The position numbers and the translations under genes are program-made. A stretch of 62,803 bases of DNA, the filler included, from Dugesia japonica (taxonomy: Eukaryota), in assembly GCA_001938525.1 (NCBI GenBank). It is 5 parts of 5 records of this genome, joined end to end, with 100 filler letters (N's around TTAATTAATTAA, not from the genome) between each part and the next. Parts side by side here need not be neighbours in the genome. Positions count along the whole stretch, not along the records: positions 10,098 to 20,648 come from MQRL01639175.1; 4 more parts are not named here. One strand, given 5' to 3'. Position 1 is the first letter of the stretch, and the number at the start of each line of letters is the position of its first letter. The notes under the pieces are model-generated. The model saw only the letters and a program-made list of their open reading frames with translations, ran no database searches and was not told where the DNA came from. This document shows positions 2,976 to 56,229 of this stretch, one piece after another.

Positions 2976-3033
2976 TTAATGAGTTACATCATAGTAAAAA
3001 TTTGCGAAATCTTTGTCACAGAAATTTAGTGTA

Positions 3034-3218
3034 TGTGAGAATGATATTTGAATTTTCTAAGATCAAATTTATATGCGTAATTAAAATATTTCAAGAAAAT
3101 AATTAAAATAATTATTGCGCATATTTGTTTGAATATTAAAACTTTTCTAATTATTTTTTTTGATAGCAACTTTGTCTTAAATAAATGTTTTATGAGGATA
3201 GCGTTTTTATTGCTAATA
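3034..3218 (+). repeat. 5' LTR of Gypsy A
   Basis: Begins tgtgagaatgatattt, ends ctaata; aligns with 6786-6966. Confidence 0.85.
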
Positions 3219-3930
3219 TGGCAACCACGTCAGTTTCAAACTTAGTAACCGATTTGTTACGCACAAGACCTTTCAAGTTAGGCAACAATCTGGACAGATT
3301 CTTGAGGGATGTCGGTCGATTCTTCAAAGCGGTCAAAATTCCAAAGGATTTACAAGAAATTGTAATCGTTAAGATGATTGACCCGAAGCTTGAAGAAAGA
3401 TATGAAGCATCAGAGAACAAAGTCAAGGGGTATGAAGCTAGGCTACGACTACTGGTGGAAAGACCAAGAGACCTAGAAGAATTCATTTGTTGCAGTCAGG
3501 GTGATACCGATAATGAGGTGTTCTTTCACGACGTAGAAAAACTGGCAGATAAACTGCTTAGCCATAATCTGTCAAATGAGTCGTTAATATCAGCACTCCT
3601 GATAAACGCTACGGCACAGAAGAATGCAAAGAAAGAGATTTTGATGAAAAGGTTTCCGAACCGGAAGAAATAAAGGAAATTATCAGAGACATTTCAAGAA
3701 TCGCCAAAAAGACAAAAAGAAGAACCGTGATGCGTAGCTTTAAGGCGTCATTATACATGGAACCAAAAAAGAACGATTCCAAGGATGCAGGAATCAACCT
3801 TCAAAGGGCCAAATACCAGAGGAGAGTTCAGAACAGAGAAAGTAGAATGTCGGAGCTGTCAAGGAGAAACCCAAACGGAGAAGCTCCGCCAACAGGGGAG
3901 ATGGTAAGAGCTGTAGAACTCAAAATCTAA
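3218..3930 (+). pseudogene. gag of Gypsy A (frameshifted)
   Basis: ORFs 3185-3673 and 3727-3930 lie between the PBS and the protease region; likely start MATTSVSN at 3218. Confidence 0.7.
3219..3229 (+). promoter_or_regulatory. Primer-binding site, tRNA-Arg(TCG)-like
   Basis: TGGCAACCACG directly follows the LTR; one mismatch from TGGCGACCACG, the complement of a typical metazoan tRNA-Arg(TCG) 3' end. Confidence 0.6.
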
Positions 3931-3989
3931 TCGGTGATCCCAAAAAATCGATAGTTATAGTAAAATATAGAAGATGATGTCAAAGAATT

Positions 3990-6785
3990 TTTTAAAGAAA
4001 GAGATATCAGTAATCAAGAGAGAAACATGAGTGAAACCAACTATTGCAGGAGTGGAAGAATGAGGAAAAGGTATGGTTAGATATGATATAATGCAGGTTA
4101 GATTAAGTATTGCGATAAAGATCCAAAACATGGAGCTTAAATGCCTACTGAATGCCGGAGCAAGAATTAATGTGATGGGTTTGGATGTGTTTAACAAATT
4201 CAAGGATGTCTCATTGTAAACAACCAAGGAGAGACTATAGTGCGCTAACGACAGTTCATTAAGCACCAAAGGAAGATTTGAGGTGGAAGCGAGGATCGGC
4301 AGTTCGAATAGATGGATTAATTTCATAGTTGCGGAAAAGATAATCACTAGCATAATTGGTGGCATTGAGTTGCAGACCAGTTTTGGATTAGAACTACAAT
4401 AGATAGATACAGCAGAAAGAGATAATCAAGATCNNNNNNNNNNNNNNNNNNCGCATTTTGGAAGGATTATTACAGATGAAGAAAGATATCAAAAAGCTAT
4501 GAGTGAGATAAATACATTGGAAAATGGCACAATCAAGAAGTTGATAAGAAAACATTTAAATATCTTTATGGCAGACAAATGGGACATAGGATGAAGCATA
4601 AAATAGTAACAAAAGGAAGACCTATAAATGTTAAGCCATGGAGGACACCTATGAACCTTGAGGATAAGATAAACAAAGGAGTACGTAATCTTTTTGAAAA
4701 TGAAATTATACGAAAGTGCAATTCAACATGGAAAACCCCGTTGATATGTTACTGGAAAAAAGAAAAAAAAATACATTCGTCTCTGTCTGGAATTTAGACA
4801 GCTGAACGCTATTACGCAAAGACAAGCATTTCAAATGCCAAATGTAGAAGAGATTCTGGATAGATTAGGTAATGCTTACNNNNNNNTAAAGCTAGAAGAA
4901 GAATCATAATTTAAAACAGCCTTTTCAACAAAGTCAGGTCTATACTGTTTCAATAGAATGCGTTCGGCATATCATCATAAGAGATAAAGGAGTTCAGACC
5001 AATACAGCAATATTGATGAAAATACAGACATACAAAAGACCCAAATGCGTAAAAGAATTGAAAAGTTTCTTCGGGATATCTTGCTATCACAGAAGATTCA
5101 TAAATGAGTACGCAAAGAAGACTAGAGTACTAGAAAAACTGTGCAGTGTAAGTAATAATAAGTTAATATATACACAGAGCTGCGAACATTAATTCAGAGA
5201 TATGAAAGAAGCATTGACGAAGCCACCAATTTNAGTGTTTCTAGATGTCAGGAGAAAATTAATACTGGATACGGATGCAAGCTACAATACAATTGATGCC
5301 GTATTATCACAAATTGACAACAATGGACAAGAAAGGGTGCTAGCGTATGGATCACGCGCAATGAATAACCACAAATTGGGGTACTGTATAACAAGAAAGA
5401 AGTTGTTGGCGATATTCTATTTTTGCAACCATTTCAGTCACTACTTATATGGGCGAAGGTTCACTCTACGAACAGATCATAAGGCGATTACGTTTCTGTT
5501 AACTACAAAGAAATCTATAACGGCACAGTTTCAAAATTAGATCAATTACCTAAGTGGATTAGACATTGATTTACAGTATCCGAAAGGTGACAAACATGGT
5601 AATGATGATTTTCTCTCAAGGCAGGCATGTGGCACTTGTGTACAATGCATGATGTCCCACAAAAATCTTATAGGAGGCAAATTAAAAACGAGACGTTTGA
5701 ATACAATAAGAGAGACATCAAAATGGCAAGGAGATAGCGAAGAGATACGAATAATATGAGAACAGATAAAATATGGTAAGGAAGAGAGATTTCAATAGAT
5801 AGGCAGTCAGATATTAACACAAAACAGAAAGATTTGGATACCAACAGATAGAAAATTGGATATGATCAGAATAATGCATCAGTTGCTAGCACACGCCGAA
5901 ACAGAAAAAGTTGCCAAATATATTAGAGAACATTATGACATGACTAGGTTGTGGGGAAGTGTAAAAGAAATCGTGGACAGATGTGAAGCATGACAGCAAG
6001 TGAAAGTCTTAAAAACTAAANNNNNNNNNNNNNNNNNNNNNNNNNNNNNNNNNNNNNNNNNNNNNNNNNNNNNNNNNNNNNNNNNNNNNNNNNNNATTAA
6101 AAGAAATATATCGTGGCTATTATCGACCAGAATAGTAAATATATATCATTGACAGCCACAGACAAACAAGATGAAGAGTCAATAACTCGAGTATTGAAAG
6201 ATTACTGGATATTAAAGGTAGGAGCTCCGAGATATATTCATACAGATTGTGGAAAGGTATTTGAATCACAAAAAATGAAGAAATTTGCAGATTAGATGAA
6301 TATAAAACTATGTTTCTCAAGTCCTTATCACCACAATACGAATGGACAGATAGTAAAGGCAATTTTGGACTATCAGAGACTGGATTAGGCCATAGCAGAC
6401 AAAAATGCGAAGAATTGGGCAGAAATTCTACCAGAGATTGAATTTACGATGAATGCGACAGTACAGAAAATAACAGTTAAAAGCCCGGCGAAAACGGTGT
6501 TTGGTAGAAAAATCAGCAGAGAAAAGTGGTTTTCACCTAGACAACTAGAGTTGGGGAAGATAGACAATATACCAAAGATTATGTATCCAACCAAAAGAAC
6601 TTTCGCTATTAGAGATGTAGTGCTTATCAAGGTGGAAACGAGAAATATGGATCAGGATCGTTTTGTAGGTCCATTCTTAGTAATAAAAAAAGATACATGA
6701 CAGAAGATATCTGGTTCGAGATGATCTGGGTCGGACAATCAAAAGAAATGTTGAAAAGATCAGAAAATTTCTTAAAGAACGGGGA
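3990..6785 (+). pseudogene. pol (PR-RT-RH-IN) of Gypsy A
   Basis: CLLNAGARINV (protease site), HKIVTKGRPINVKPWRTP (RT N-terminus), RNase H ORF 5202-5540, integrase ORFs 6113-6295 and 6449-6700. The RT core is partly deleted. Confidence 0.9.
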
Positions 6786-6966
6786 AGTGAAAATGATATT
6801 TAAATTGCTTAATTTCAAATTTATATGCGAAATTAAAATATTTCAAATTAAAATAATTATTGCGCATATTTGTTTGAATATTAAAACTTTTCTAATTAGT
6901 TTTTTATTTGATAGCAACTTTGTCTTAAATAAATNTTTGATCAGGATAGCGTTTTTCTTACTAATA
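6786..6966 (+). repeat. 3' LTR of Gypsy A
   Basis: Follows the PPT; direct repeat of 3034-3218. Confidence 0.85.
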
Positions 6967-7479
6967 GAGTATATTTTAAATATATCAGTAAAGTTTAGTT
7001 CAGAGGTCAGTGTATTATTTTGAAAATATTTCAATTTGAGTGATATTAAAATTTGATTGAGGAAAATATTTACGCTCTTTCTGCAAAACTTAATTGATCA
7101 ATGAAGACAGGTAAGTTTATTTGTAACTGTTAAGAAAATACTTCATTAGGAGTTTTTGTGTTGGAAACCCCAACAAATTATACTTATTTTAGGGTGACTT
7201 ATGCTGATATAAGTAAATATTCTTGCAAAAAAAGGCTAAAATGATAGTCGAAAATAAAATAAGTATTTAGAAATATTTAATTGAAACAACTGGCTTCTTG
7301 GAACTCGGTAAAAATATATAATTAATAATTTTCATGAATAGTACCGGATTAAATTAGATACCAGTAATTCTGAAGTCTGGAAGAGTCAGCAGTCACGAGA
7401 GTCACGTGTGAAATACTTTTTTCTTTAGCTCATAAAATTGCATTGTTCTTGATGATTAAATCAGGTTAAAGTTTTCAAC

Positions 7480-8555: not shown

Positions 8556-9234
8556 TAAATTGGGGTTGTCAAAGTAGCGTTACTATCTTTCTGTAACTTC
8601 TAAATACAGTGTCAAAAATGCTTTTCGTCACACAAACTGGGATTTTAACTGTATAATAAGTTTATTTTTCATGCTTCTACATTTTAAACTTCACTGATGT
8701 TGTTCGAATTTATTTTGATCAATTTGTACTACAATCGTCTATTACGTTTATTTTGAATTGGATTTGAGGTTTTTATTACAAAATAATCAATAAATTTAGT
8801 TGTAAATTACTAATAAAAATAATACGTAATAATTGTTTCTAGAAACCTCAAAAATGATAGAATTACATAATAAAGATAGTAAATAATTTTATAGTATGAG
8901 GATTGTCTTATACGTAAATTAACAAAATACCAAATTTGCTAAAAAATAAATTACAATGCAAATTTTATAAATATGATTATTTGGATTTTAGAAATTCATT
9001 AAAACGTTTCATTTTGTTAAATTGCGCTTGAATTAGAATTTAATATTATCTTAAATTTCTATTTAATCGGATCTGTCGATTTTGAAATACTTTTATTAAA
9101 TATTCATTTGTAAATTATTTTTCATCATCATAAAATCATAATTTTATTAATTAATTAAAAATAGTTAATTATTTGTTTTAATAATGAATTAAAAAATTCA
9201 TTTGATTTTGCTTGAAATTTTAAAGTATTAAATA

Positions 9235-9720
9235 ATGACTTTAGAATTATATCGCAATACAAATATCGGGTTGACTTTTATAGAAGCTCTAAATGAAATA
9301 AAAAATTTATGTTCAATATCTGAAACAGCGGAAGATAATGTTATTTTTTTTCATAAATTTATTTTACTTTGTAATTATTTTTCTTTAAATTAGATACTAA
9401 AAAAGTTCGATGAAGTTATTGAAAATAAATTTAAAGATGTGAAAAATACGTTAATGATGAATGGAAAATTGTTATCTTATCGATTTTGCGACAATGTATG
9501 GTCATTTATAATGACAAATGTAACAATTAAAGATGACAGCCTTCCGAAGATATTGGAACTTGAAAAGGTTAAAATTGTAGCCATTCTTGCAAAACCATCT
9601 CATATTGTTAATAATGGTCGACCAGTTTCTTCTGGGAAAGCAAAACGAAGCAAAAATGATGAGATAGATGATGATGACGAAGAATGTGCTATGAAACGTT
9701 CTAGAAGTAGAAATATGTGA
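9235..9720 (+). CDS. GTF2A2: Transcription initiation factor IIA gamma subunit; exons 9235-9339 and 9394-9720
   Basis: Exon 1 MTLELYRNTNIGLTFIEALNEI (cf. YQLYRNTTLG..LQESLDEL); 54-nt GT..AG phase-0 intron; exon 2 with the hallmark YRFCDNVWSF and KVKIVA. Spliced frame is open, 143 aa. Confidence 0.92.
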
Positions 9721-9997: not shown

Positions 9998-10097
9998 NNN
10001 NNNNNNNNNNNNNNNNNNNNNNNNNNNNNNNNNNNNNNNNNTTAATTAATTAANNNNNNNNNNNNNNNNNNNNNNNNNNNNNNNNNNNNNNNNNNNN
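9998..10097. other. Artificial contig spacer N44-TTAATTAATTAA-N44
   Basis: Six-frame stop linker flanked by 44 Ns; same design four times. Confidence 0.95.
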
Positions 10098-10424
10098 TTT
10101 TAGTAGATCCTCATACAATTAAACCGGTTAGCAATCACATGACTAATCAATATGAATGTAAGGATAATATTATTTCAAACGTTGTCAAGTCGATAAAAAT
10201 TCGATAAAGATGTCGATAAAGAGAACAATAAAGAAATCTATTGAGAAGTCGATAAAACGACGATCAAGGAAGCAATGAAAGAAAATGAACAAGGATCAAA
10301 CAATGAATGTGAAAATGAAAAAGCCAAAGAAGTAGTCAAAGAAGAATGAAAAGACGAAGATTCACTCAACTGGTAAATGGTTCAAGCTGTAAACAGTCTA
10401 ATCATATGTTAATTAATAAATAGT

Positions 10425-10742
10425 ATGGCATTTGAACAAAGTCTTCCTTATTTAAAATTATTGTTGAAGGCTCCACAAGAGTTTACAATGACAATGTTAC
10501 AGTCATTTCCAAAGTTTGTTATTGATAATTTATTAGAGACAGTTGTAAGTATTGTTCGAGGAAATGTAATTCTCAACCAAGATAAAAAACTTATATTTCA
10601 ACTTCATAAATAGCCGTTACTTTCAATTGTTAAAACTAAGAATAAGAAATTAATGAGAAAAATAATCTATAAACAAAAGGGGGGAGTTATTGCTGCATTA
10701 TTACCAATAGCATTAGCATCATTAGAATTAAATTTATTATAA
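10425..10742 (+). pseudogene. Small Polinton protein with QKGG motif and hydrophobic C-terminus
   Basis: MAFEQSLPYLKLLLKAP...IIYKQKGGVIAALLPIALASL with one internal stop; homolog at 55828-56153. Confidence 0.65.
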
Positions 10743-10809
10743 ACAATGGTTTAATTTAGAGTCATTATCACGAATTTATCTGAAATTTATATCAAACTGT
10801 TGTAGTCGA

Positions 10810-11838
10810 AACAATATGGACATACCCAAAAAATCCAGCAGGATTCAATGGAGTGGAAAAACTAGGGTTAGCAACAAAAAGTTCAAAAGCGAGACGAAAA
10901 AGTGGTTATCGAACCAGTTTGCGTACAGTCTGAACAAACCAATGTTGAAAAGATTCCCAATAAGACCGTATAAAACATATGGATTGATGATTTATGGCAA
11001 TTAGATTTGATGGAAATGATTCCATATTCAAAAATTAATAAAGGATACAAGTATATTTTAACATGTATCGATGTATTTAGTAGACTTGCAAGAGCTGTAC
11101 CCAATAAAATTAAAATCATCTATCGAAATTGAAGCCGCAATCAAGATAATGCTTAACGACAGTCACCCAGATGATTTGCAAACTGATTTAGAAAAAGAAT
11201 TTTATAATTCANAAGTCAAAACTATTATTAATCATCTAAAAATGAACCATTATTTTGTATTTTCACAATATAAAGCGGCATACATTGAAAGATTTTATCG
11301 AGCATTGCGAATTGCATTGAAAAAGTACTTTGTACATACAGATAATAAGACACGAATTCATGTATTAATAAAAATAATTGACAGTTATAATCATACAAGT
11401 CATAAAGAATTAAAGACTCGTTGATATATCATCTAACAATTCAATGAAATTATGCTTATTGAAACTAAAACCAAAAGCAATTATGAAACCTTAATATAAA
11501 GTTGGTAATTATGTAAGAATCTCAAAGATATCAGCTTCACCATTCATCAAAATTTCAATAATAATTGGAGTGATGAAATATTTAAAATTTTAAAGATCAA
11601 TACCAAGCAGAACCCTGTCATGTATGTGATTAAAGATCATGAAGAAAATATTATTGTTTTTAAATTTTATGAACAAAAATTACAAGTCATAGAACAACCA
11701 ACAGTATTTAGAATAAAAAAGATTTTAAAGTCAAAAGGAACTGGAAAGTATAGACAATTATATGTAAAATGGCATGGATATGAAAAACCTACTTGGATGT
11801 CTGCATCTCAATTAGTTAACAATGAACAACACGAATAA
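10810..11838 (+). pseudogene. Polinton retroviral-like (rve) integrase with C-terminal chromodomain
   Basis: WTYPKNPAGFNGVEKL, KWLSNQFAYSLNKP, IDDLWQLDL, YKYILTCIDVFSR, LQTDLEKEFYN, KAAYIERFYR, NWSDEIF, FRIKKILK..LYVKWHGY..TW. Confidence 0.92.
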
Positions 11839-12827
11839 TTTCTATACAATTTTACCTTGTAATAGCTGTCCACGTATTCATCCAGATAATAATGCTAGTA
11901 AATTTATAGTTGAACTTGAAAATCCTATTTACTTGAATGGTAATTGGGAAGTAGCATTGATGGACTTTACTTTTCTATATAATGCATTTTCAAACTATAG
12001 CAATGCATCGTTTGAATATGTAACTGGATATCAACAATCAAGGGAAATATATTTCACAATTGATAAAAATGCAAAAATATTAATTGTTGTTGTTGATGTA
12101 TTTGATAAATAAAACTTGTTAGTTATAATCAAACATCATGATTATGATTTAATATTTGAAACTCTCGAAGAAGCGAAAAGATTTGGATTTGATAGTTTCA
12201 GTAGTGATATTTCAAATGGTGGTATTATTCCTTTTCGAGACTTTAAAAATAATGGAGAGCTAGATATAATGAAAGTTATATTAAAGTATTCATTAGAAAA
12301 TACCGCTGTATTATCTTTTGATGATCATTTGTACATTACAGATATACCACAATTAAATGAATACATCATAAATGCTTTTTAGTTTAAAGAAAAATCAACC
12401 ATTTAAATTCTGGTTAGAAACACATATTAAAAGAATCACCTTTGATAAACTCCTGATAAAAACATTATGATTAGATAGTCAAACATATTCCCAAAGTAAT
12501 ATAAATATAGTTCATAAAGAGGAAATCATCAGAGGAAACCCTAAAATAATCACCAATCCTTATCAAATGTTCATCTGTAGTAATATTTTTGAACCTATAA
12601 TAGTTGATTATGCAAATGTTCCTTTATTGAAATCAGTATGTTTGGAGAGTTATGAAGATGATCAACCCGTTCAAATTATAGTTAAGAATCCAATGTATCT
12701 ACCAATTGCTACTTCATTTATAAACAATATAGAAATCAACATCATAGACGATAACGGCGATTATATTAGATTTGGCTCTGACGCAAAAACTCATTTAACA
12801 TTATACTTTAGGATAATAAATGTCTAA
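11822..12827 (+). pseudogene. Minor capsid (penton) protein
   Basis: N-terminal FYTILPCNS..HPDN..SKFIVELENPIYLNGNWEVAL and C-terminal MFICSNIFEP..VPLLKSV..NPMYLPI..INNIEINIID..LTLYFR match Polinton penton motifs. Confidence 0.85.
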
Positions 12828-13194
12828 TCGTAATATTATAGTTTTATATAGCACTGGACAATCTGGTGGTGAATTGCCATACTTTGTAGGAAAACAGTAT
12901 GGATCCGGATGTTTGCAAACAATTGGCCGATTTGATTTACCAATTCTTAGACGTATTGGTGCAGTTGAAACGGAAACATCACAAGATGTAATAAATAATA
13001 AAGCGAAAATTTTTCCATCACTCAAAAAAAATGCTATGAATGAATTTAACAATTTTTTGGATTTAGATGAGCTTACAGAAAGGCTCTCAAAACCAAAGGG
13101 TGAAGGAATTCTTAAAGGAAATGGAATAAAACGTAAGAATTCTATCTTGATGGGTATAAACAAACGAATGAAAAGATGTAAAAACAATATTTGA
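12820..13194 (+). CDS. Polinton GG-motif protein (putative protease-processed, membrane-active core protein)
   Basis: 124-aa open frame; GQSGGELPYFVGKQYGSG followed by an amphipathic segment, and basic tail KPKGEG..LKGNGIKRK; lies between penton and MCP. Confidence 0.65.
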   Translation: MSNRNIIVLYSTGQSGGELPYFVGKQYGSGCLQTIGRFDLPILRRIGAVETETSQDVINNKAKIFPSLKKNAMNEFNNFLDLDELTERLSKPKGEGILKGNGIKRKNSILMGINKRMKRCKNNI

Positions 13195-13197
13195 CTA

Positions 13198-14409
13198 ATG
13201 ATTTCTGGAAAAACAGAAATCTGCATTTTCTATCGTCCATCTCATCAAGGTGTTATTGAATATGGAGTATTTGAAGATGCATTTCAAATGAATAATACTT
13301 CTGAAAGTATAAATGATGTAGAACTGTTTATAAATGGATCGCAAACTGAATATTTGGATTTAAATGATACTCTCTTGTGTGTTCAAGTGAAGGTAGTGGA
13401 TAAGAATGGTAAGAATTTGAAGAAACGTCTGATGTAGTACCAGGGAATTTCATATTGCATACTCTATTCAAAGATGTAATTCTTCAATTAAATAATTTTG
13501 AAGTTGAAGGTGGAAATGAAACTTATGTATCTAAAGTAATAATTGAGACTATTGTGACTTATAATGGAGATACAAAGGATGTTTCTCTTAACGCAATGGG
13601 ATTTGGAAATAATACTTTTAGACAAACAAGCATTAGATCATCAAAACCATGGTCTCTATGTGGTCTTCTACAACTAGACTTCATAGATCAACCGAAATCT
13701 CTTATTCCAAGTGTCAATGCTTACATTCAATTGAAAAGATCGGAAACAAGGATTTTTTAGAATCCAAACTTGATGAACAAAAATATAAATTATTGGATGC
13801 AAAATTAATGATTAGAAGAGTTCGAGTGAATTAATCAGTACTAACAGCTCATTAAATTGGATTAACCAAACAAAATGCTATTTATCCTATAAAAACCAAG
13901 GAAATTGTATCGTATGCAATTAGTAAAGACCTTTCATCATTTTATAAGGAGCAAATCTTTGGAGATTACTAACTTTTATTCTGGTTGAATTTCAAGACGA
14001 AGAAAGATATAAAGAAATTTATCAAATACAAAGCTCACTTTTCAATAATTTCAATATTAAATCTTTGACATTGTTTAAGAATGGAGATTTCAGAGAGACT
14101 TACACGCACGATTTTAAAAGTAATGATTATAGTACATCATATATGCAGTCAAAAGTTAGAAATATGGGATATCTAAACAAGAATATGAATTGTGGAATAA
14201 CACTAAAAGATTTTAAGACCAAATATCCATTTTCCACTTTTGTCCTGGCTCCAGACTTTGATATAAATCAGATTCAATTACCGATGCAGGTTAATCTTAA
14301 TCTAAATATAAAATTCGATTCTTCATTAGTGGCACCAGCACATGTAATAATCTACGATGTTTTTGAAAACGAGATTCAAATTACTGTCAAGAGACAAATA
14401 TTGTTTTAA
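13198..14409 (+). pseudogene. Double jelly-roll major capsid protein
   Basis: KTEICIF, VELFINGSQTEYLDLNDTLL, HTLFKDVILQLN, LQLDFIDQPKSLIPSVN, NAIYPI, GITLKDF..FVLAPD..NLNLNIKF..IIYDVFENEIQI; frameshifted. Confidence 0.88.
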
Positions 14410-14499
14410 ACAATCTACTTTGGTTTAAACAATCAAAATGTAGTGAAAATTTTAAGAAAATGAAGTAAAATTTTATTATTCATATAATGTATTTATTTA

Positions 14500-14898
14500 A
14501 TTAGTTCAATTCAGATCAATAAAATCGGAAAAGAATGGTTAGTATAAGATTGGTTAGGAGTATTTCCATTAGACAAGATTTCATATATTCCAGTTAATAG
14601 AGCACTTGCGATGAACAATCAGAGCTCTAACCTCGAAGGTGAGCATGTGTTAGTGGTTTATCATAAACCTGAACATATCCTAATATTTGATCCATTTGGA
14701 TTTTATTATCCATCAATACTAGTATCGCAACTATCGAGTTTATCCAAGCCAATTATTTATAATAGAACACAGTACCGGAAATTACTCTCTACGAATTGCG
14801 GTAAAATTTGTCTGTTATGGTTAAGAAAACAACATGGCGGAAGTAAGAAATATTCTGGAAAAGTATCAAATATGCAGAAAAATCAACATGGCAGATGA
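14500..14898 (+). pseudogene. Adenain-like (C5) maturation cysteine protease
   Basis: WLGVFPLDKI, N..SNLEGEHV (catalytic His, usually HW), IFDPFG (Asp), YNRTQY...STNCGKICLLWL (Gln, Cys). Confidence 0.85.
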
Positions 14899-15799
14899 AT
14901 TTTGTATTGAATAAATGTATTGAATAAAAACGTGTTATTTATTAAATTTATAATTATTTACTGTGTAAACTTTTAATATGAATATTTTTTATTGTTAAAT
15001 TATTTAAATTAATATTTTATTGTTAAATTATTTAAATTAATATTTTATTGTATATGTATTTATCTTTGAATAAATTCTATTAGAAATAATATTTAATTCT
15101 ATTTGTATTACTATTTAATTATACTCAATTAATATTGTATTCTATTTGACTTTATCTTTGAATAAATTGTAATTGAATTTATCTTTGAAGAAATTATAAT
15201 TAAGTTTTTTTTGTTTAATCACATCAATTATTTAAAAAACATTATTAAGTAAACACTTGGTATATAAAGTGTTCAACATAATGTTCAATTTTTCAAAAAT
15301 CAGCATGTAACGCATTTTTAAATTTTTATTATTTTACATTTTTTTAGTTTTAGATAATGTCTGGTAGCAATAATAATAATAATAATATTAATAATAACAA
15401 TCAATGAATCAAAACAATAAAAGAACATTTCAACAAGTATTTTTATTCTTTTTTAATCTGTTTTATTTTCATTTAAATTTATTACAGTATGAATGGAAAT
15501 AATTCTAATTTTCTTGATCAAATTAATATGATGAATCAAATGTACTTAATGATGTAACAAAATATGATAAACCAGAATATGATGTTTTCAAATATGAATA
15601 ATGTAATTCCGAATTTTCAACAATTTATGCCAAATATTTCAATTAATTTGCCAAATACCACAAATTATGCTTCAAATATGATGAATGCAATGCCGGATAT
15701 GACAAGCTATGGTCAAAATTATATGAATGTCAAACAAAAAGATAGTATTTTATTGATTATTATTGTTATTACTATGATAGATCTAATACCATAAATATC

Positions 15800-16230
15800 A
15801 CATTTTGGTTCACTGATGAAGATATTGTTATCTTTGCAAACATATCACCAATACTCAAGTTAAATACCTTTCTCCTTGCATTCAATTCATAATTGCATAT
15901 TATAAAGAACCTAGTACACTGTCCAGTGTTAATATTTTGAAAGCTAAAACTATTCTTTGTCCAGTAAATATTGAGAATATGCATTGGATCCTATTCGTCT
16001 ATCAAAAATTTTGATAAAAATTAGTTTTTACATTGATCCTATTCAACAAACTGAAAATAACTCATTTAATAGAATAATCTCAGAAAAACTTATAACAGCT
16101 TTCAATTTCTTATCTACTATTGAAGCTAAAGTAGTTCATCATCCATTGAAATACTAGCAACATCAGTACAACAACTATGATTGCAAACCATTTACCTGTG
16201 CCTATGCTATTCTAATACACAATAAATTAA
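15800..16230 (+). pseudogene. Ulp1/SENP-like (C48) cysteine protease remnant, probably transposon-borne
   Basis: Across frameshifts: FWFTDEDI (cf. WLNDEVI), TILCPVNIENMHWILFVY, FYIDP, QHQYNNYDCKPFTCAYA (cf. QxNxYDCG). Confidence 0.7.
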
Positions 16231-17563: not shown

Positions 17564-18830
17564 NNNNNNNNNNNNNNNNNNNNNNNNNNNNNNNNNNNNN
17601 NNNNNNNNNNNNNNNNNNNNNNNNNNNNNNNNNNNNNNNNNNNNNNNNNNNNNNNNNNNNNNNNNNNNNNNNNNNNNNNNNNNNNNNNNNNNNNNNNNNN
17701 NNNNNNNNNNNNNNNNNNNNNNNNNNNNTATTAATAATCTTAATAATAATAAAGATAATAATAATATATGGATAGATAGAAGCCACAATCATGGCTACTA
17801 TCTTTGTGGTTATCTAAGATGCTCGTTTCCTCAACCAATGCTATGTGATCTTCTAAAGGTGACCTCTATTCTCCAAAAAATTAAAGCATCATCAATAATT
17901 TCCAAGGTACATCATGAAATGCATGAAGATTTGAGTCATGGCAATTATTATCATATTATTATCATATTGACATATTTTATTAGTAATTATCATTACAAGC
18001 TGTTTACATTATTCATTACTAAGCAAGTGTTTNNNNNNNNNNNNNNNNNNNNNNNNNNNNNNNNNNNNNNNNNNNNNNNNNNNNNNNNNNNNNNNNNNNN
18101 NNNNNNNNNNNNNNNNNNTGTAGAAGAAACTTTGCTGTAGAATTTGATTGGTTGAAAATGTATGGATAGAAAACATTTTTGGAGCAGAATTTCATTGGTT
18201 GAAAATTTTTTCCAGCTGCTTTAAAATTTTTTTTATTTATTTAAAATAATTATTTGTGGCCCTAATGAGGACCGACATACGTGCTTACGTGCATTATTCG
18301 TTTACTTCATTAATCTTTTCGTTCTTTAAATTAACTAATGGCCGTTGCTTTTTTCCCCATAGAAAATGAATAATTTATATCAATAAAATTTTCAACCATG
18401 TCATCTATTATTTTACTAAATTCATTATTGTGTTACGTGCATATCAAGTGGGTTTATAATGGTTTTTTTCATAATTTCTTTATTATTTTTGCACTCGTAA
18501 TGCATTTGTATCGCAATACAACTAAAATAATAATATTAAAACAAATCTTTTCAAATTTAACTTTTAAACTAAATAAATAATCAATTAATTAAGCAAATAA
18601 AACTAAATAACTAAAATAAAAAAGAATTTCTAAAAACAAGATTTATTGAATAAAATGTTCTCTTTTTCACAATGTCTGAATTTTTTTTCATGATTCTTTT
18701 GAGATCACTAAATAAAAATATATTAATACATTTTTAATACAATAACTTTATATTTATCAATGTCGATTGACTTTCGATTGAACTGGATTGAGCTGGATGG
18801 ATTGTCTCCAGTAATTTATGAGAAAAAGTA

Positions 18831-18940
18831 CTACATATCTAGTGTGATATGACCATATGGTACACTTATATTCTTTTCTACCAATAATCTTTTATTGTCG
18901 ATATTTGATCATGTCACTTTTTGACTCTTTATACTGTAGA
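18831..18940 (-). pseudogene. C-terminal tip of protein-primed family B DNA polymerase (pPolB)
   Basis: YSIK..KVT.S.IDNKR.......SVPYGH fits the Polinton pPolB terminal motif (YTIxxxKxALSxxDDKR...TLPYGH). Short, but in the expected context. Confidence 0.7.
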
Positions 18941-19670
18941 GTAGACACCTAGTCATGCCGATCCAAGCCACTTTGATCCAATTTGATTAATATGAATAGA
19001 ACTTTTGAAATAAAATAATATTAATCTAATAATACTTACTTCATAATTTTAAAGGAAATATGCAAGATATTGTTTAAACTAATACTGTTCGGTTTGCATT
19101 TTTTTGGATTTCGGTTTCAAATACTCCATTAATAATAACATATGCCGGTACAATCAAACCTGTTGCAAATTTTTTATCCAATCACAAATGTCATTATTGT
19201 TTCAATTGGCTCTGATTTATATCGAAATAGGGATCTAGAACAAATGTAAAAAATGGATATTTAGTTTTAAACTCCTCAAGTTTTATTCAGAAATTCATAT
19301 TTTTTGTATCAAATTATTCCATATTTCGAACAATTTATTGTATGTATGTTGTGCTGTAATTATCGTTTTGAAAGTCTTGAGTATATGTTTCTCGATAATC
19401 AATATTTTTCAATAGGGAAATAGAAGTAGTATTTAAATGTTGAAATGTTGAACTAAATGTCTTATAACTATCATTAAATTGATCTCCATTTTGAAATGTA
19501 ATTAAAATAAAATTAGGTAAACGACGATTACCAAAGATTTTTTCCTTATAAGATGATGTACTTACTAATTGCATAAGCTACAATATCCTTGGTTCTTATT
19601 GGATAAAAATCATTTTGCTTGTTTAGTCCTATTTGGAAGACAAGCAAATACTGAAGATTCAACGCAAACA
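18831..19670 (-). mobile_element. Polinton copy 3: MCP C-terminal part, protease start, pPolB C-terminal tip
   Basis: 19074-19670 aligns to MCP (KEKIFGNRRLPNFILITFQ, DYRETYTQDFQND); ~18941-19005 aligns to the protease start of copy 1; 18831-18940 reads YSIKSQKVT*SNIDNKRLLVEKNISVPYGHITLDM*. Confidence 0.82.
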
Positions 19671-20648
19671 TAACCTTTTCTGAGAGAAGCAAGCATATTT
19701 TTACAGAAGATCCTATACAAAAAAAGTTCAGACTTTTATTTTGAGTCGATTAGTATCAAAAATTTTAAAAATATTAATCAAATGATTATAAATATAATTT
19801 ATAATTAATTACATAATTATATATTATTTCCTGAATGAAGCAATTGAATACAGCAAACCCCATATGAAATATGTTCAGTCTTTTAATTNGAGTTCAAGGA
19901 TACCAAATTGGTTTGGTTATCATAAGTATTTCCAGAGTAAATAATTTCTTTTATCCAAGGTGGGACATGTCACCTGACAATTTTCTGTCTTGTGAATGAA
20001 GCATATATATTCAGCAGACCTAACATAAAATATATTTAGAATTTCATTCTAAATCGAATGGTATCATTTACGACGCGATACGATGGGTCTTGACCGAGAA
20101 ATTTTTAGATCAGGGCCAAGTGATTCTGTGCTTCAATGCCTTTTCTGAAAATACCAAGCATATTTATACAGCAGATCCAAAACAAGAAATGTTTAGTTTC
20201 AAATTCTGAGATCAACGATACTAAACTTGTAATCGTACGATAAAAATTATCCAAAATAATTATCCATCTACTGTATAAATAGTAAGAACTATCTATATTA
20301 TATGAATAGGATTTATATTTTCACATCATTTAAAGATACGTTTGAAATTCTTTATTCCATGAAATAATTTTATATTTTTGAATACTCAATTTACTTTATA
20401 AAAAAAATTTTAAAAAAATAAAACCACATGTGAATAAATTATTTATAATAAACATAAATATTTATTAAATATATTATAATATTTTGTATGTAATAATTAT
20501 ATGTCCTTGTTAAAAGTTGGTATCATTTAGATATCATTATGATGCGTTGTGGTATTTAATAATTATGTAAAATCAATCATTCACAAATTTTCAATTTTTA
20601 CCAAATTTTACAAATTTTTACAATTTTTAATGAATACGAAGTAAATCA

Positions 20649-20748
20649 NNNNNNNNNNNNNNNNNNNNNNNNNNNNNNNNNNNNNNNNNNNNTTAATTAA
20701 TTAANNNNNNNNNNNNNNNNNNNNNNNNNNNNNNNNNNNNNNNNNNNN
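20649..20748. other. Artificial contig spacer
   Basis: N44-TTAATTAATTAA-N44. Confidence 0.95.
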
Positions 20749-23649: not shown

Positions 23650-24101
23650 GTGATCAATCACTATCGAGAAAAACTGTATTGAATTGGTAAAAGCTCGACA
23701 GAAAAAGTCGTAAATAATTAAAAGATGCAAATCGTTCTCGTTTTTCATCAATATCATTGATTGAAGAAAATGTCGAAGAAATTAAAAGGAAAGTAATGTC
23801 GAATCGATATTTGATTATGAGAGAACTTGCTGAAATGGTAGCTTATCAACAAGTATAGTTTTAATTTTAACTGGTGGTTTAGGCCTGGAGCCTTTGGGAG
23901 CAAAATACATTCCAAAATCATTGAATTTTTTGCAAACACAACAGGCGATTAACGAAATTTCAAGTAAAATTTAATTATGTGGAAATTATTAAAAGTAAAT
24001 CAAAAATACAACTAAAAGTTTTATTAATTATAAGTTAATTTCATCCTCCTCATTAAGTTATTTGGAGAAATTAATCACCACATTTGAATAATATGTATTT
24101 G

Positions 24102-24136
<35 letters not shown>

Positions 24137-24652
24137 NNNNNNNNNNNNNNNNNNNNNNNNNNNNNNNNNNNNNNNNNNNNNNNNNNGTGATCAATCACTA
24201 TCGAGAAAAACTGTATTGAATTGGTAAAAGCTCGACAGAAAAAGTCGTAAATAATTAAAAAATGCAAATCGTTCTCGTTTTTCATCAATATCAATGATTG
24301 AAGAAAATGTCGAAAAAATTAAAAGGAAAGTAATGTCGAATCGATATTTGATTATGAGAGAACTTGCTGAAAATGGTGGCTTATCAACAAGTATAGTTTT
24401 AATTTTAACTAGTGTTTTAGGCCTGGAGCGTTTGGGAGCAAAATACATTCCAAAATCATTGAATTTTTTGCAAACACAACAGGCGATTATCGAAATTTCA
24501 AGTAAAATTTAATTATGTGGAAATTATTAAAAGTAAATCAAAAATACCACTAAAAGTTTTATTAATTATAAGTTAATTTCATCCTCCTCATTAAGTTCTT
24601 TGGAGAAATTAATCACCACATTTGAATAATATGTATTTGAATTATATATATA
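23650..24652 (+). repeat. Two near-identical ~465-bp copies (23650-24136, 24187-24652) containing a mariner transposase fragment
   Basis: ENVEKIKRKVMSNRYLIMRELAE..ILTSVLGLERLGAKYIPKSL is the mariner second HTH/WVP region. The copies flank a (TA)n tract plus gap and differ at roughly a dozen positions. Confidence 0.8.
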
Positions 24653-24841
24653 AATTTATTATTGGATAGATGAGGGATTAAAATATATTTTTAGAAATAC
24701 TTTAAATATTAGGTTGTAACATATGAAATGTCTAATTATGTAATAAAATAATAAATATATATCCATATATTTGATGGGGAATTATTAGAGGTTTTGCAGT
24801 ATTTAATTAAATATCTTCAAAATAACTTGTAAAATTTATAC

Positions 24842-27800
24842 CTGTAGACAAGAGCGAATATATTTTGTAAAGTAGCTATGTCTAAACTGTATAATTCAGT
24901 TCCAATAGCTTCATCAGCAGTATTTTCATCTTCGGTTAAAATTTTCTTTTTAGAAGATAAAGTATTTATTTCATTTTGAATAGCTTGTTTGCATAATGCC
25001 ATCGCAACTTCAAATCGACCTTGACTAGAATACTCGGTAACCAATGAATGAAGACTTTTCAAATGATCGGGTAATTCGTAATTGCTTACATTTGAGCTTT
25101 CTGAACCATTGGTAATTTTTGAATCATTATTCTTCGAAACTTTTCCACCTATTTATAAGCGCAACAATAAACTTTTTCTTAATTTAAATCTCAACCATTT
25201 TTCTTGAAAGAACAGTTAATTTCATTATATACACTTTCTGCTAAATTTCCTCCAGACAATGTAGACTCCGATAGATTAACTGAATCTGATAACTGACTGT
25301 TTGAATAACTATTTGGCAATGGTTGATCATATTTTTTTAAATCCTAAAAAAATTAATAATGAAATTTAACTTTATTAAAACTAAAATTTAAACACTTTTA
25401 TAAAAGAAATTAAAAATCGGTTATAACATTTGTGATTTATCAAATAGAACCGTAAATGAGTGTCGATATCCTAGCAATAATTAGTTGATATTTAGGAAGA
25501 AATATAGTAATACTATTTCTGCCAATGTTCTTATTTAATTCTTGATTAATATTAATATGAGGAAAAGAATTCAAGACATACACATTAGTAAACAATTCCT
25601 TTTTAAGAGATATATCCTGACTTTAACTAAAAGTTATTCTTTAAAAATACAAAATAATTAATAGTATTTTTTAGTTTGTTTAAATTGACATTATAATTAA
25701 ATTTAAACATGCAAAGTCATTTAAAATCAAGAAGGTGAGGAAACCTAAACATCGATTTTTGAATTCTTAATTAAATTATAAATTCTTAAAGTTCATTTTT
25801 TCTAAAATTCTTTTAAGCTCTTTAATTATGAAATTTAAATTAATTGACAAAACCCAAAGAATTTTAACCTGAAATTTCCAAAAGCAATACAGAAATTTTG
25901 CAATCGTAAATCTGTTTAAAATGTATTAAATTATTGTTTTTTATGTAGTTGTGATTATATTTTTGGTGAAAAATACAAGTTATTATTGGGAGTAGAAATT
26001 ATTTAGTTTCGGTAAGACTATTAAAACTATTAAACTATTAACTTTTACTTTTTTGGTTCTAATAAAGGGGTTTAAAGAATGTTGACAATAGTATTACATT
26101 AATACTTGGAAAAACTAAGATGTTCCGTTGTAGCTCGACGTTAATGCGAGTCATACGTGTAAATTGTTATATTATGGTTTTTAAATTTATGAACGATATT
26201 TACGATAAAAATTATTTTAAAAAACTAAAAAAAATTTAAATACTTTGATTTACGAATTTTACTTTTATTGAAAAACGAAAAAGTCGAACCTCTATAATTT
26301 GACGGATATATTAACATTATACAGGCCGCTAATTATCTTCGAAGAAAAGATTTTTTTCTTTTGATTGCCTTGATAAATAATTATTTTTTTATAATGATTA
26401 TTTAAAAAAATAGTTGAAAAAAACGTTAAACGGAACATAAGTCATTGGCCTGTAAAATTTTACTATCAGACAAATATTTATGTACACTATTCATCACATG
26501 TTTAATAAAATAATCTCAAAATTCGTTAGTTTTTTAGTTCAGAGTGGTGTCGAATTAAAAATATTTAAAGGTATTTACTTCAAATAGAAATTGGTATTCT
26601 AACTGTTATCGAAGAGACAAAGAATTAAAAACGAAATTATAATTGGATAGTTCATTTTGAAAAAATGTGCTCTACTTACAACGGTTAAAATAAAAGTGAA
26701 ACACATTATGAGTCGGTTTTGATCAATACAAGTTTTGTTATAACATTTTAAATAATGTGTTTTATTATTATTAAATATTTTAGTACTGATAGTAGGTAAA
26801 TATTTAATTTACTAGGTANNNNNNNTCAAAAATGACGGTTTGTAAATAAAATTTTAGTGGTCTAAAAATTTCAGAATGGTCTGAAAAAATACACTAAGTT
26901 TTTAGGATCAACCGTCAAAAATGTTAACAAAATTAATTGAATTGTATATCAAAAGAAAGAGCGTAAAAAGCTGAGTAAGAAATAATTTAGAAATATAAAA
27001 AAATGTTAAATACGCTCAGAGTTATGCCAGATAAAAACTTTAGTTTGGCAATATTTTAAAATATTTTATAAAAAGGTTGTAAAATATTTTGACATCACAG
27101 CATTTAAGCAGCCTATATTATTTATTTATTTATAATTAAAAAGGAAATTATATTATATGTATTTATCGATTATTTCTTAGTTTATCGAGATTTTGTTGAT
27201 TGTTTAAATTTTTAGATAATTTAAATTGGTTCAAATATAGATATTTGGAATATTGAAATTTTACTTGATTTTCGCTAATATAAAAATTAAAAGTTTTTTT
27301 ATTATTGAACTTCAAAGCGAAATCTTTTTTTCAGTATTATAATTTTTTTTAAATTATTTCCAAAATTTTGAAATTTATTTTCCAAATTTGCAGAATTTGG
27401 AATATTTTCAATGAAGATTCTATTATTATTATTGAAATAATTTTTATTTTAACTAATAAAATTTTTAAAAGTTAAAATCTATGTTAGTCTTTATAACTCA
27501 GATGTACAGACAAATTCACATATATATAGACGTAGAAATTATATATATATATATATATATATAATTACTCCATCCCATAAAAAAGTGGATTTTTAAAAAA
27601 ATTAAATTTGTATTTTTCAAATATATATGAGATAAAATGTTAATTTTAATCATTTAAAATTAAAATTAAATGTATTAAATCCACTTTTTTATGTGATGGA
27701 GTATAAGTTTGTGTGTGTGTGTGTGTGAATTGGATGATTGGTCCATTTTATCTATACCAGTATATAATTTATTATATAATTTTAACGATTTTTACAATGA

Positions 27801-30800: not shown

Positions 30801-32977
30801 AGTCTCAAGAAGAACGAAGAAGGCGAATGGCACGTGATAACGAGCAAAACTAAACCAGGAAACTCTCATCATGATAAAGAAGCCAAGCATCAAAAGAATA
30901 TGTTTAATTTTATTATTATGCATTTTTTAGTATAAATCTTTTAACATGTATTATTTTAGAGTCATTTTTGAATAAATTTAATTTTAAGGTCAAACTTTTA
31001 ATATGTATTTTTTAAATCAAAGGAGTTACTGATTTCATCAATACAATGTAAGTACTGTGAAATTGAGATGTATTTGTCAAAAAAGGCATCAATAATAGAT
31101 CGGTTTTTATGGAAATGCCAAAATAAACATTGTAGGCCCTATAAGACTACAACATCCATAAGAAATTTGTCATTTTTGGTAGTTCCACAATCAATCTTAA
31201 AACTTGGTTGGAGATTTTATATCGATTGGCAGTTTACTAGAGTATTTGTCAGATTAAAAATTCGATATCGATTGCGTCATCTACAATAATTAAAATCTTC
31301 AAACTATTGAGAACTTATGTTTCCAACTATTTTCTGAGGCATCCAATTAAATTTGGAGGAGAAAATGTTGTATGTTAAGTTGACGAAAGCTTATTTTGTC
31401 ATAAACAAAAGTATCATCGAGGCAGATTGTCAGATTCCCAAATATGGGTATTTGGAATTGTAGACTGTAGTTATGTTCCAGCTTTATGGATTTATGCAGG
31501 TGGTACCTGATAGAAAAGCTGATACTTTATTGCCAATAATTACTCAGAGAGTGCGTCCAGGTAGCATTATCCATAGTGATGAGTGGAGAGTTACATTGGA
31601 ATATGAACACCTGGCAGTTAACCATCAAATGAACTGTATTAACCCTCAAACAGGAGCTCATACCCAGAATGTCGAATCATATCGGAATAAACAAAAATCC
31701 CGTTGTAACAATATGCGAGGAATTAGAAAAGAATATTTACAAGATTATCTTAACGAATTAATAGAGCTTGTAATGAATTTGTAATTTATTTGAATTGTGC
31801 ACTTTTGGGGTGATTTTTTAAATATGATCCATCAAAAGCGTAATAATGAAACAGCTAAAGAGAGATTTTAACGATTACCACAAGTAGTTCTTCAAGCAAA
31901 TGAAATCAGAGAGATATTTTATGCATTAAAGACTGAAGAATGAGGTGAAACACGACGTATTTAGTTCCAAGTGAAGAAATTTCACTATCGAAAACATCAA
32001 TATCCAGCGGTGTTAGTATTTCCAATGACAACTAATAAGGTGCAAAGACAATTGTTTGATCAAGTGGGAGTTTATTTGCCAGAAATAGTTTTTTTATAGT
32101 CGCAACGATGAAAATTTAAAAGTGCTTACCAAAAATGCAATCTACAAATGAGTAATTTTAAATAAAAATAAAATTAAAAATAAAATTTTTTCAGTTTATT
32201 CATATTTTTGTAATCCTTAGTAAATTTAGTATTGATTTTTTCAGACAAATATGGACCACTTTTAGACTACTAAAATTTCAATTACTAACCTATTCATTTT
32301 TGACGGGTAAAACACCAGTATTATATTAAATTTAAAAGTTATAATTAATTATATATAATTAATTAAATAAATAAATGTACTAAAAAATCTAGTAATAAAA
32401 TATTTCAAAATTCTTCAATATCCTGATAATAATTAATATGAAATATGAAAAAATAATAAACAAATTTTAATAGTAATATCAAATAATCAGTTTTGAAGTT
32501 TAATTCAAATAATATTACTAACCAATTTTAATTCGTAATCTTTAATCTGGCTTTCTAATTCTATATTTTGTTCTTCGGTGGCACTTAGTCGTGAATGTGT
32601 TGCACTGATTTCTTCTCTGAGCCAGTAGTTTTCTTCAGATAATCGAGAAATCATGGAATTCAATTTCATTTGATTTGCTTCAACGAGTTCAAAGTAATCA
32701 GACAAACTCAAAATTAGCTAAAAAAATATAGAACTTTTAATGAATATTACGAAGAGAAAAAATTAGGTTCAACCTCAATTTCATCGATGCCCAATTCTAT
32801 TTTTTCCAAAGATTTTTTTAATCGGTAAGATTTTTCGTTATGTGATGCTAAATTTTCATCATTACAATCAGAAATAGAATTCGTTAGGTTAAGATTATCA
32901 ATATGATCTGATCTTAATGATTTCAATGCAATTAAAGAGGTTTTAGCGAGACTTATGATATCTGTTGATTTTTTCAT
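24842..32977 (-). CDS. KLC: Kinesin light chain, 5' part; exons 32977-32774, 32717-32523, 25343-25196, 25148-24842; remaining TPR exons not seen in this contig
   Basis: Heptad region LEKIELGIDEIE|LILSLSDYFELVEANQMKL..RLSEENYWLREEI, then DLKKYD, YELPDHLKSLHSLVTEYSSQGRFEVAMALCKQA and DIATLQNIFALVYR. All introns are GT..AG and phase-compatible (56, 7179 and 47 nt). Confidence 0.92.
26322..26452. mobile_element. Small Tc1/mariner-superfamily MITE
   Basis: TA|caggcc..ttat.ttc ... gaacataag..ggcctg|TA: imperfect TIRs with TA on both sides. Confidence 0.5.
26810..26915 (-). repeat. Helitron-like 3' end, inverted homolog of ~32210-32318
   Basis: The reverse complement aligns with 32210-32305 and ends in CTAGT. 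Confidence 0.5.
27568..27701. mobile_element. Stowaway-like MITE (134 bp)
   Basis: TA|ctccatcccataaaaaagtggattt ... aaatccacttttttatgtgatggag|TA: 25-bp TIRs with one mismatch and TA TSD. Confidence 0.8.
28600..30480. mobile_element. Penelope-like retroelement debris (RT core, possible GIY-YIG region, inverted pseudo-LTRs)
   Basis: ~29955-30062 (+) ILAIIFMNFIENQII..LLWFRYIDDI is a Penelope-type RT core; ~28690-28880 (-) KYIG..NTGHNRIWEKT resembles the GIY-YIG region; CTGA..CGAAA repeats occur in both orientations. Confidence 0.65.
30790..32318 (+). mobile_element. Helitron remnant with nested Merlin
   Basis: MTNESQEERRRRMARD resembles Helitron N-terminal repeats; ~31985-32095 YRKHQYPAVLVFPMTTNKVQRQLFDQVGVYLPEIVF matches the Pif1 motif RRQFP..LAFAMTINKAQGQT; 3' end gacgggtaaaacaccagt. 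Confidence 0.65.
31000..31790 (+). mobile_element. Merlin (IS1595/ISXO2-like DDE) transposase remnant
   Basis: WKCQNKHC..TTSIR, GGENVVC*VDESLF..KYHRGR..WVFGIVD, VPDRKADTLLPII..GSIIHSDEWR, VNH..NPQTGAHTQNVES, YLQDYLNE. Confidence 0.9.
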
Positions 32978-33303: not shown

Positions 33304-33403
33304 NNNNNNNNNNNNNNNNNNNNNNNNNNNNNNNNNNNNNNNNNNNNTTAATTAATTAANNNNNNNNNNNNNNNNNNNNNNNNNNNNNNNNNNNNNNNNN
33401 NNN
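33304..33403. other. Artificial contig spacer
   Basis: N44-TTAATTAATTAA-N44. Confidence 0.95.
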
Positions 33404-44968: not shown

Positions 44969-45068
44969 NNNNNNNNNNNNNNNNNNNNNNNNNNNNNNNN
45001 NNNNNNNNNNNNTTAATTAATTAANNNNNNNNNNNNNNNNNNNNNNNNNNNNNNNNNNNNNNNNNNNN
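44969..45068. other. Artificial contig spacer
   Basis: N44-TTAATTAATTAA-N44. Confidence 0.95.
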
Positions 45069-56153: not shown

Positions 56154-56229
56154 AAACAATGGGCAATGTGGAATCATTGTCACATATTTATCTCAAATTT
56201 ATATCAAATTGTTGTAATCGACAAAATCG

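Follow-up and report, generated by a model that had tools for sequence, protein, structure and literature searches.

The window analysed here, a stretch of 62,803 nucleotides of Dugesia japonica DNA with filler included, contains three genuine Polinton/Maverick relics, which are very probably dead, independent insertions from three subfamilies of a single Polinton/Maverick lineage, highly abundant in this host, to which Polinton-1_SM also belongs. The copies, termed A (10098-14898, plus strand), B (18830-19743, minus strand) and C (54577-62803), are homologous, have each decayed differently and lie near the coordinates given for them in a preliminary description of this DNA. In blastn alignments the identity is 69-76% for segments of A with C and about 71% for A with B and for B with C, which, with the coordinates, bears out the earlier picture of three divergent copies carrying different inactivating lesions. 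Nearly every gene in them is broken, and gene identities were assigned by homology to intact relatives (P-numbered proteins and L-numbered loci), with 13 related loci taken into the comparison of gene order and strand. With Pfam, 85 fragments of the window gave no match for capsid, penton, ATPase or protease, and matches to rve, Chromo and Adeno_PX that fall below cut-off, while Rfam gave 0 matches in the window.

At its start copy A abuts a scaffold gap, with N runs at 9998-10041 and 10054-10097; its features are as follows.

10098 to 10420, plus strand: decayed basic-ORF (pm-position) region, covered by family contigs; its start is the gap edge, not the element end
10413 to 10742, plus strand: PZ or protein-X-like core protein ('QKGG'), 46% over 92% of the L009 protein, one in-frame stop
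10784 to 11838, plus strand: frameshifted rve integrase that ends in a chromodomain, 40% to the L002 integrase over 94% of its length
11816 to 12827, plus strand: penton (minor capsid protein), broken; matches to profile A2 at E 1e-18 and 5e-21
12820 to 13194, plus strand: PW or cupiennin-position protein ('QSGG'), 53% over 91% of the L009 protein, no stop
13155 to 13161, plus strand: TATAAAC box, 43 nt before the capsid ATG
13198 to 14409, plus strand: double jelly-roll major capsid protein, spread over four frame segments, 65% over 99% of P0003
14487 to 14898, plus strand: adenain-type protease, one in-frame stop, 45-48% to three relatives

A K/R-rich ORF of 50-70 aa occupies the basic-ORF position in all five of the intact loci, and the likeness between A and C at this position is weak (z 2.5). 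The Pfam matches below cut-off are likewise weak, both for Adeno_PX (E 0.0075 in copy C, E 0.011 in L002) and for the Chromo domain (E 0.017 in window fragments, E 0.004 in relatives); rve is above cut-off in the integrases of relatives. The PW gene of copy A, at 124 aa, is the sole open reading frame there. The L006 protease matches Peptidase_C5 above cut-off, and the window's protease fragment, searched by itself, matches nothing in Pfam, PHROG or the PDB. A TFIIA-gamma gene at 9232-9720, across the scaffold gap and with an apparent intron, was excluded from the element.

Copy C retains the packaging end of the element, together with a gene on the other strand.

54577 to 54802, minus strand: TBP-like gene, N-terminal half, 70% over 49% of P0204 (E 5e-21), head-to-head with the ATPase
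54858 to 54864, plus strand: TATAAAC box, 32 nt before the ATPase ATG
54890 to 55505, plus strand: A32/FtsK-type packaging ATPase, 4 stops, 56% over 98% of the L009 ATPase, which itself matches Pox_A32 above cut-off
55828 to 56149, plus strand: PZ or protein-X-like protein, interrupted by an N run, by homology to relatives
56210 to 56907, plus strand: integrase, 5' part, by homology to relatives
56907 to 59703, no strand assigned: 2.8-kb insert inside the integrase, unrelated to the element, holding a 95-N gap
59703 to 60015, plus strand: integrase, 3' part, collinear continuation of the 5' part
60029 to 61028, plus strand: penton, broken, by homology and profile match
61255 to 61628, plus strand: PW protein, broken, by homology to relatives, with a TATAAAC at 61586
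61628 to 62803, plus strand: major capsid protein, broken, 74% to P0001 over 387 columns; it leaves the window before the protease

The 2.8-kb insert has no match elsewhere in the window, to ORFs of the loci, to the fetched proteins or to Pfam. Copy B is the shortest of the three.

19077 to 19743, minus strand: capsid protein, C-terminal half, 72% over 46% of P0003, with 6 stops within the alignment
18938 to 19012, minus strand: protease, first ~25 codons, by homology to relatives
18830 to 18962, minus strand: pPolB, last 34-41 codons, fused directly to the protease stump, 39-47% to the L005, L008 and L009 polymerases

Both this homology to intact relatives and protein folds support the Polinton/adintovirus call of the preliminary description, along with its capsid, penton, ATPase, adenain and integrase; the folds were modelled on the relatives rather than on the window's broken genes and at middling confidence (pLDDT 61.5 and 73.5). 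The P0010 capsid model folds like the capsids of PBCV-1, iridovirus and virophage (against the PDB, E 4e-13), and the capsid copies of the window match the P0010 profile at up to E 5e-69. The L009 penton model resembles the mavirus penton (Foldseek E 5e-7; Z 12.2, rmsd 7.4, 235 aligned). The models thus give the lineage jelly-roll folds in both proteins, a double one in the capsid protein and a penton fold in the other. The single jelly-roll penton lies one gene upstream of the capsid gene, its usual position in Polintons (PMC4028283), and the A32/FtsK ATPase is found in copy C only. An Atlas search with the penton fragment returned unnamed clusters, the nearest named family being Sputnik V18/19 at 0.94, which is a lead only. 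With regard to the other Polinton/Maverick hallmarks, namely TIRs, a 6-bp target-site duplication and a length of 15-20 kb, no convincing TIRs or target-site duplication are present in the window, the element ends being lost, in a gap or off-window.

The complete virion module claimed earlier is found in no single copy: A is without the ATPase, C ends before the protease, and B comprises the C-terminal half of the capsid gene and some 25 codons of the protease. The proposed order of ATPase, basic ORF, QKGG protein, integrase, penton, QSGG protein, capsid and protease does stand, as the virion block has the same order in L002, L006, L009, L011 and L012 and no conflicting order in any of the 13 loci; what fails is the placing of pPolB as its co-oriented end. 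The junction between capsid and protease in B resembles that of A (z 8.7), and the pPolB remnant beyond it scores 38.5 bits against at most 26.9 in 30 shuffled windows. The pPolB named previously is thus present, although as 34-41 C-terminal codons (3% of the protein), and there is no further pPolB in the window outside 18840-18962. That this tail lies on the capsid strand in B is what would be expected if the lineage were undescribed and had a novel architecture, with all genes on one strand and pPolB last. However, the tail is joined to the protease stump at codon ~25, so that its place and strand in B reflect rearrangement, and in all three relatives that reach pPolB (L005, L008 and L009) the gene lies beyond the protease on the opposite strand, convergent with the block. 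The TBP-like remnant on the minus strand at 54577-54802 likewise contradicts the statement that all genes are co-oriented, and a lineage both undescribed and built in this way is improbable.

How the copies relate to one another is seen from their rate of coding change and from the capsid tree. Between A and C dN/dS is 0.36 over 748 codons, in segments picked from tblastx matches, which favours conservation, while shifted frames give 0.97 and 1.0. In the capsid tree A, B and C never form one clade (0% of 200 bootstrap trees); instead, each stands beside a different intact protein, A with P0002 (92/33), B with P0003 (94/87) and C with P0001 (98/96), of which only the last pairing is strongly supported and the first two are weaker. 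The branch of each copy is longer than that of its intact neighbour. The copies thus represent three subfamilies that diverged under purifying selection. Their location within 63 kb of each other might suggest local duplication of one insertion and subsequent neutral drift, but they share no flanks, lie on opposite strands and are each nearer to a different database protein than to the other copies; the dN/dS value and the capsid tree refute such a duplication, which is left with a negligible probability. Several subfamilies that replicated independently are supported, and for these the repeated colonisation of the host put forward earlier and amplification within the host lineage are equally good explanations. 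The abundance of the family in the host is very high: 14,121 and 11,624 contigs from two DNA runs lie on copy A, some 90% of them less than 99% alike.

In its ancestral state the element would have been inserted by its integrase, the rve-chromodomain of which is observed, and may have been copied by pPolB through protein priming, as is established for Polintons, here with a remnant of the enzyme. The one-strand block would have encoded a packaging ATPase, basic and protein-X-like core proteins, penton, double jelly-roll capsid and adenain, presumably for virions. After insertion each copy appears to have decayed by stops, frameshifts, deletion and nested insertion. Being fossils, the copies themselves give no indication of virion formation at the present day.

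The TBP-like remnant and the TATAAAC boxes had been missed in the preliminary description. The likeness of the remnant has a z of 9.1 (0/200 shuffles), and its locus in copy C is matched by 43 of the 83 proteins of the TBP-like family and nowhere else in the window, which keeps only the broken N-terminal half. A second TBP remnant beside B was rejected, as z stays at 3 or below in the expected frame and the DNA does not resemble that of the remnant in C. The TBP-like proteins of L009 and L002 are above the Pfam cut-off (PF00352), and with profile A3 the matches to TBP structures, archaeal as well as eukaryotic, range from E 1e-21 to 2e-13. In contrast to the cellular and archaeal TBPs of PF00352, that of the lineage is ~150 aa long, is without an N-terminal extension and has a divergent first repeat. 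PMC8502044 labels a TBP in elements of this kind; in the literature searched this naming was found only there and in the preprint of that paper, in figure legends. Of 11 related loci, 8 have the capsid TATAAAC box 42 nt ahead of the ATG, and of 5 related loci, 4 have the ATPase box 33-41 nt ahead of it. From gene and boxes together, the element-encoded mini-TBP would probably drive the structural genes from the TATAAAC boxes. A tentative extension of this is that the lineage supplies a basal transcription factor of its own: a TBP of 150 aa would bind TATAAAC boxes 32-43 nt ahead of the packaging and capsid genes, switching on a late virion programme. With its abundant copies, its several subfamilies, a penton domain that changes fast and a host that is much sequenced, this could be the first animal system to show Polinton particles and their regulation.

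A related question is whether the window holds fossils only of a lineage that is still an active, particle-forming virus, with intact copies elsewhere transcribed via the TBP/TATAAAC switch. For each copy, public assemblies contain a 406-aa capsid relative that is free of interruptions and 65-79% identical to it, these relatives not being tied to this host; the purifying selection points the same way, contig depth falls 100- to 1000-fold over the middle of the penton (12042-12527), as expected of a fast-changing spike domain, and family-like reads occur in two RNA runs. Yet these reads lie on both strands, 62% of them continue into unlike sequence, and those at least 99% alike number only 10 of 1,338 and 0 of 80, which fits read-through or DNA carry-over. 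An active virus is therefore rather unlikely. The dead insertions found here matter little in themselves, since decayed Polintons that carry all the virion genes are commonplace and the lineage is catalogued; the main value lies in the element-borne TBP, which, if the proposed role is true, would give with its matching promoter box a testable model of late-gene control in Polintons. How abundant the family is in its host is also relevant to whether animal Polintons form particles.

The gene arrangement is not unusual. In vertebrate Mavericks the blocks atp-pm-pz and int-mCP-pw-MCP-pro have both been published, and both are on one strand in Xenopus tropicalis (PMC8097293), which argues further against a new architecture. 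The lineage is like these Mavericks in both gene blocks, in its chromodomain integrase and in its mostly degraded copies (96% in vertebrates), virions never having been observed for Mavericks (PMC8097293); the virion module of Beta-class adintoviruses (PMC8502044) is similarly alike. It differs from both in having a TBP-like gene and a shorter capsid protein (~406 aa, 26-37% to most of the next representatives), and pPolB, which is in the ATPase block in vertebrates, is beyond the protease and on the other strand in the lineage's relatives. The polymerase is full length in L005 and L009; that of L009 matches a PHROG DNA polymerase (E 5e-20), whereas that of L005 does not, neither has a PDB sequence match and neither matches DNA_pol_B_2, which may point to a PolB of the kind described for Beta adintoviruses, not of the pfam03175 type (PMC8502044).

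Whether the lineage is undescribed is a separate matter. Its capsid was missed by Pfam in 10 of 10 relatives, and scans of viral contigs gave no relative by capsid (0/82 candidates) or TBP alignment (0/38). The nearest catalogued elements are Polinton-1_SM and Polinton-2_SM of Schmidtea mediterranea (Repbase), listed with a full virion gene set in Table S1 of PMC4028283; sequences of these elements are in supplement file 3 of PMC4642659, from which the capsid of Polinton-2_SM and of two other SM entries is absent. By hand counts on a trimmed alignment of the C-terminal capsid block, Polinton-1_SM is identical to A in 62 and to C in 64 of 94 columns, and to the intact neighbour P0003 in 73 of 94. 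Near identity to this catalogued family is thus lacking, as an undescribed lineage would have it, but other catalogued capsids are far more distant, Pln1_DR sharing about 19 of 94 (hand count). The capsid protein therefore appears on sequence grounds to belong to the Polinton-1_SM lineage as a sister family. ATP-1_SM and POLB1/2_SM also share motifs, by eye, with the copy C ATPase and the L005 and L009 polymerases, and this resemblance of capsid, ATPase and polymerase to Polinton-1_SM/-2_SM indicates a lineage that is already described.

The window is AT-rich eukaryotic DNA of draft quality, with numerous N gaps, in which self-comparison delimits three Polinton/Maverick copies, referred to as A, B and C:

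10098-14900, plus strand, copy A
18830-19745, minus strand, copy B
54577-62803, plus strand, copy C

With 69-76% DNA likeness among them, these bear out the preliminary description of three related copies. The complete virion module that it ascribed to the lineage is found in none of them. Copy A begins at a scaffold gap with the ATPase missing, and spans PZ (the 'QKGG' protein), integrase, penton, PW (the 'QSGG' protein), capsid and protease, each at 81-99% of reference length, with PW as the sole open frame. Copy C retains ATPase through capsid, every gene being broken, and runs beyond the window end; its integrase is interrupted by a 2.8-kb insert (56907-59703), and neither this insert nor the 230-bp spacer before PW (61030-61260) has a match elsewhere in the window. 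Copy B is reduced to the C-half of the capsid gene and about 25 protease codons, fused straight onto the final 34-41 codons of a DNA polymerase, pPolB (38.5 bits versus 26.9 for the best of 30 shuffles). No TIR or TSD was seen at the copies.

Elsewhere in the window Pfam detects decayed Gypsy-type, hAT and ISXO2-like transposons. The Gypsy-type copies (RT, RNase H, integrase) lie at 3000-6970, 36600-39320, 40800-43420 and 51500-52220, with an inverted piece at 36600-37370; the segments 3035-3218 and 6787-6966, possible LTRs, show 87% likeness. Further fragments are an ISXO2-like transposase of Merlin type (31464-31784), a hAT dimerisation domain (48714-49061) and a TPR-like stretch (24817-25152). 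A divergent TFIIA-gamma gene with Pfam N and C domains and an apparent short in-frame intron is found at 9232-9720 (+), with a scaffold gap between it and copy A, and downstream of copy A, 15558-16014 (+) contains part of an ORF rich in Asn, Met and Gln, along with a fragment weakly resembling Ulp1 proteases (E 0.03). An identical pattern of 44 N, 12 nt and 44 N recurs at 9998-10097, 20649-20748, 33304-33403 and 44969-45068; the one that was read contains an all-frame-stop linker, and the four gaps are therefore scaffold joins. On either side of another gap, 23650-24121 and 24187-24659 are 97% alike and may be an assembly duplicate.

What, then, do the broken genes encode? Among 85 window fragments, the only Pfam matches within the copies were to rve, Chromo and Adeno_PX, all below threshold, and annotation was therefore made through intact natural relatives. 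A 153-aa capsid fragment retrieved 10 proteins of 343-409 aa (52-65% alike), the profile of which recovered 7,170 representatives and 13 metagenome loci from 229 candidates. The predicted model of one intact capsid protein, P0010 (pLDDT 61.5), resembles the capsids of PBCV-1, iridovirus and virophage (best E 4e-13), and that of the penton candidate from locus L009 (pLDDT 73.5) resembles the pentons of mavirus, Sputnik and adenovirus (E 5e-7; Z 12.2, rmsd 7.4, 235 aligned). Pox_A32, rve and Peptidase_C5 are also recognised in relatives above their Pfam cut-offs, and a PHROG DNA polymerase is matched by the L009 polymerase (E 5e-20) and not by that of L005. Both polymerases (L005 2818-6474, L009 9125-12391) contain an endonuclease VII/HNH-like insert just under the Pfam cut-off; 10.1101/2023.08.22.554363 describes an HNH insert as a peculiarity of the pPolB2 of nematodes and oomycetes. 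One relative encodes a RING-finger protein upstream of the ATPase (L002 1710-2171).

In five loci (L002, L006, L009, L011 and L012) the ATPase, PZ, integrase, penton, PW and capsid genes follow the same order as in the window, with a short K/R-rich ORF between ATPase and PZ in all five and the protease after the capsid wherever the contig extends that far. The preliminary description held all recognised genes to be co-oriented. This does not extend to pPolB, which is on the opposite strand in 3/3 loci whose contig includes it, such that the co-oriented pPolB tail of copy B is best read as a rearrangement, nor to a minus-strand gene of copy C that the description had omitted. This remnant, at 54577-54802 (-), is the N-half of a TBP-like gene (70% to the relative P0204; matched by 43/83 family members), which points away from the ATPase and is separated from its start by 88 nt. 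In L009 and L002 the TBP-like gene is upstream of the ATPase and on its strand. The family profile matches TBP structures. In the related loci, a TATAAAC box at most 70 nt from the first ATG (background 231/3,900 windows) accompanies 4/5 ATPase, 8/11 capsid (always at 42 nt) and 5/7 penton genes, but only 1/9 PW, 1/6 integrase, 2/5 PZ, 0/6 protease, 0/3 pPolB and 0/2 TBP genes. These counts include the near-copy pairs L006/L007 and L011/L012, and there is overlap between the capsid box and PW codons. Within the window the box precedes the ATPase start of C by 32 nt and each of the two capsid starts by about 42-43 nt, and A and C hold 9 of the 13 plus-strand boxes. We infer that the TBP-like protein binds this box. 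In PMC8502044 and its preprint, TBP is already labelled in figure legends on MELD viruses.

Comparison of A with C, over 748 codons in segments picked from tblastx hits, gives a dN/dS of 0.36, against about 1.0 in shifted frames, and the two diverged under purifying selection. In a capsid tree of 50 rows and 138 columns, from which L013 and partial and lower-ranked representatives were left out, A, B and C never group together as a clade; each has its own intact partner protein, strong support being confined to the pair of C with P0001. Copy A is covered by 14,121 and 11,624 contigs of two DNA runs, about one-tenth of them at least 99% alike, which shows that the family is very large and diverse in the host, although these totals are no copy number. 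At 85% likeness, the middle of the penton (12042-12527) has a contig depth 100- to 1000-fold below that of its flanks, placing the most variable domain there, a putative hypervariable insertion domain. RNA reads on A, numbering 1,338 and 80 in one quarter of each run, lack strand information and derive mainly from other copies, and do not show expression of A.

The architecture is a familiar one. [quoted passage not shown] The gene order in the window matches these published blocks and is thus a joining of known ones. As to lineage, a motif search of supplementary file 3 of PMC4642659 returned the capsid protein of Polinton-1_SM, one of four SM Polintons listed in Table S1 of PMC4028283 and the one covered by the capsid comparison here. 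By hand count, its C-terminal block is identical to A in 62/94 columns, to C in 64/94 and to the intact protein P0003 in 73/94, compared with about 19/94 between A and the Pln1_DR capsid; the ATPase and polymerases of SM families in that file look equally close by eye. The block is close to A and C yet not near-identical, which argues that the lineage is already catalogued and that these subfamilies are distinct from Polinton-1_SM itself. Maverick expansions in planarian genomes are reported in a preprint (10.64898/2025.12.11.693146). Copies A, B and C are Polinton relics of known lineage and known architecture.
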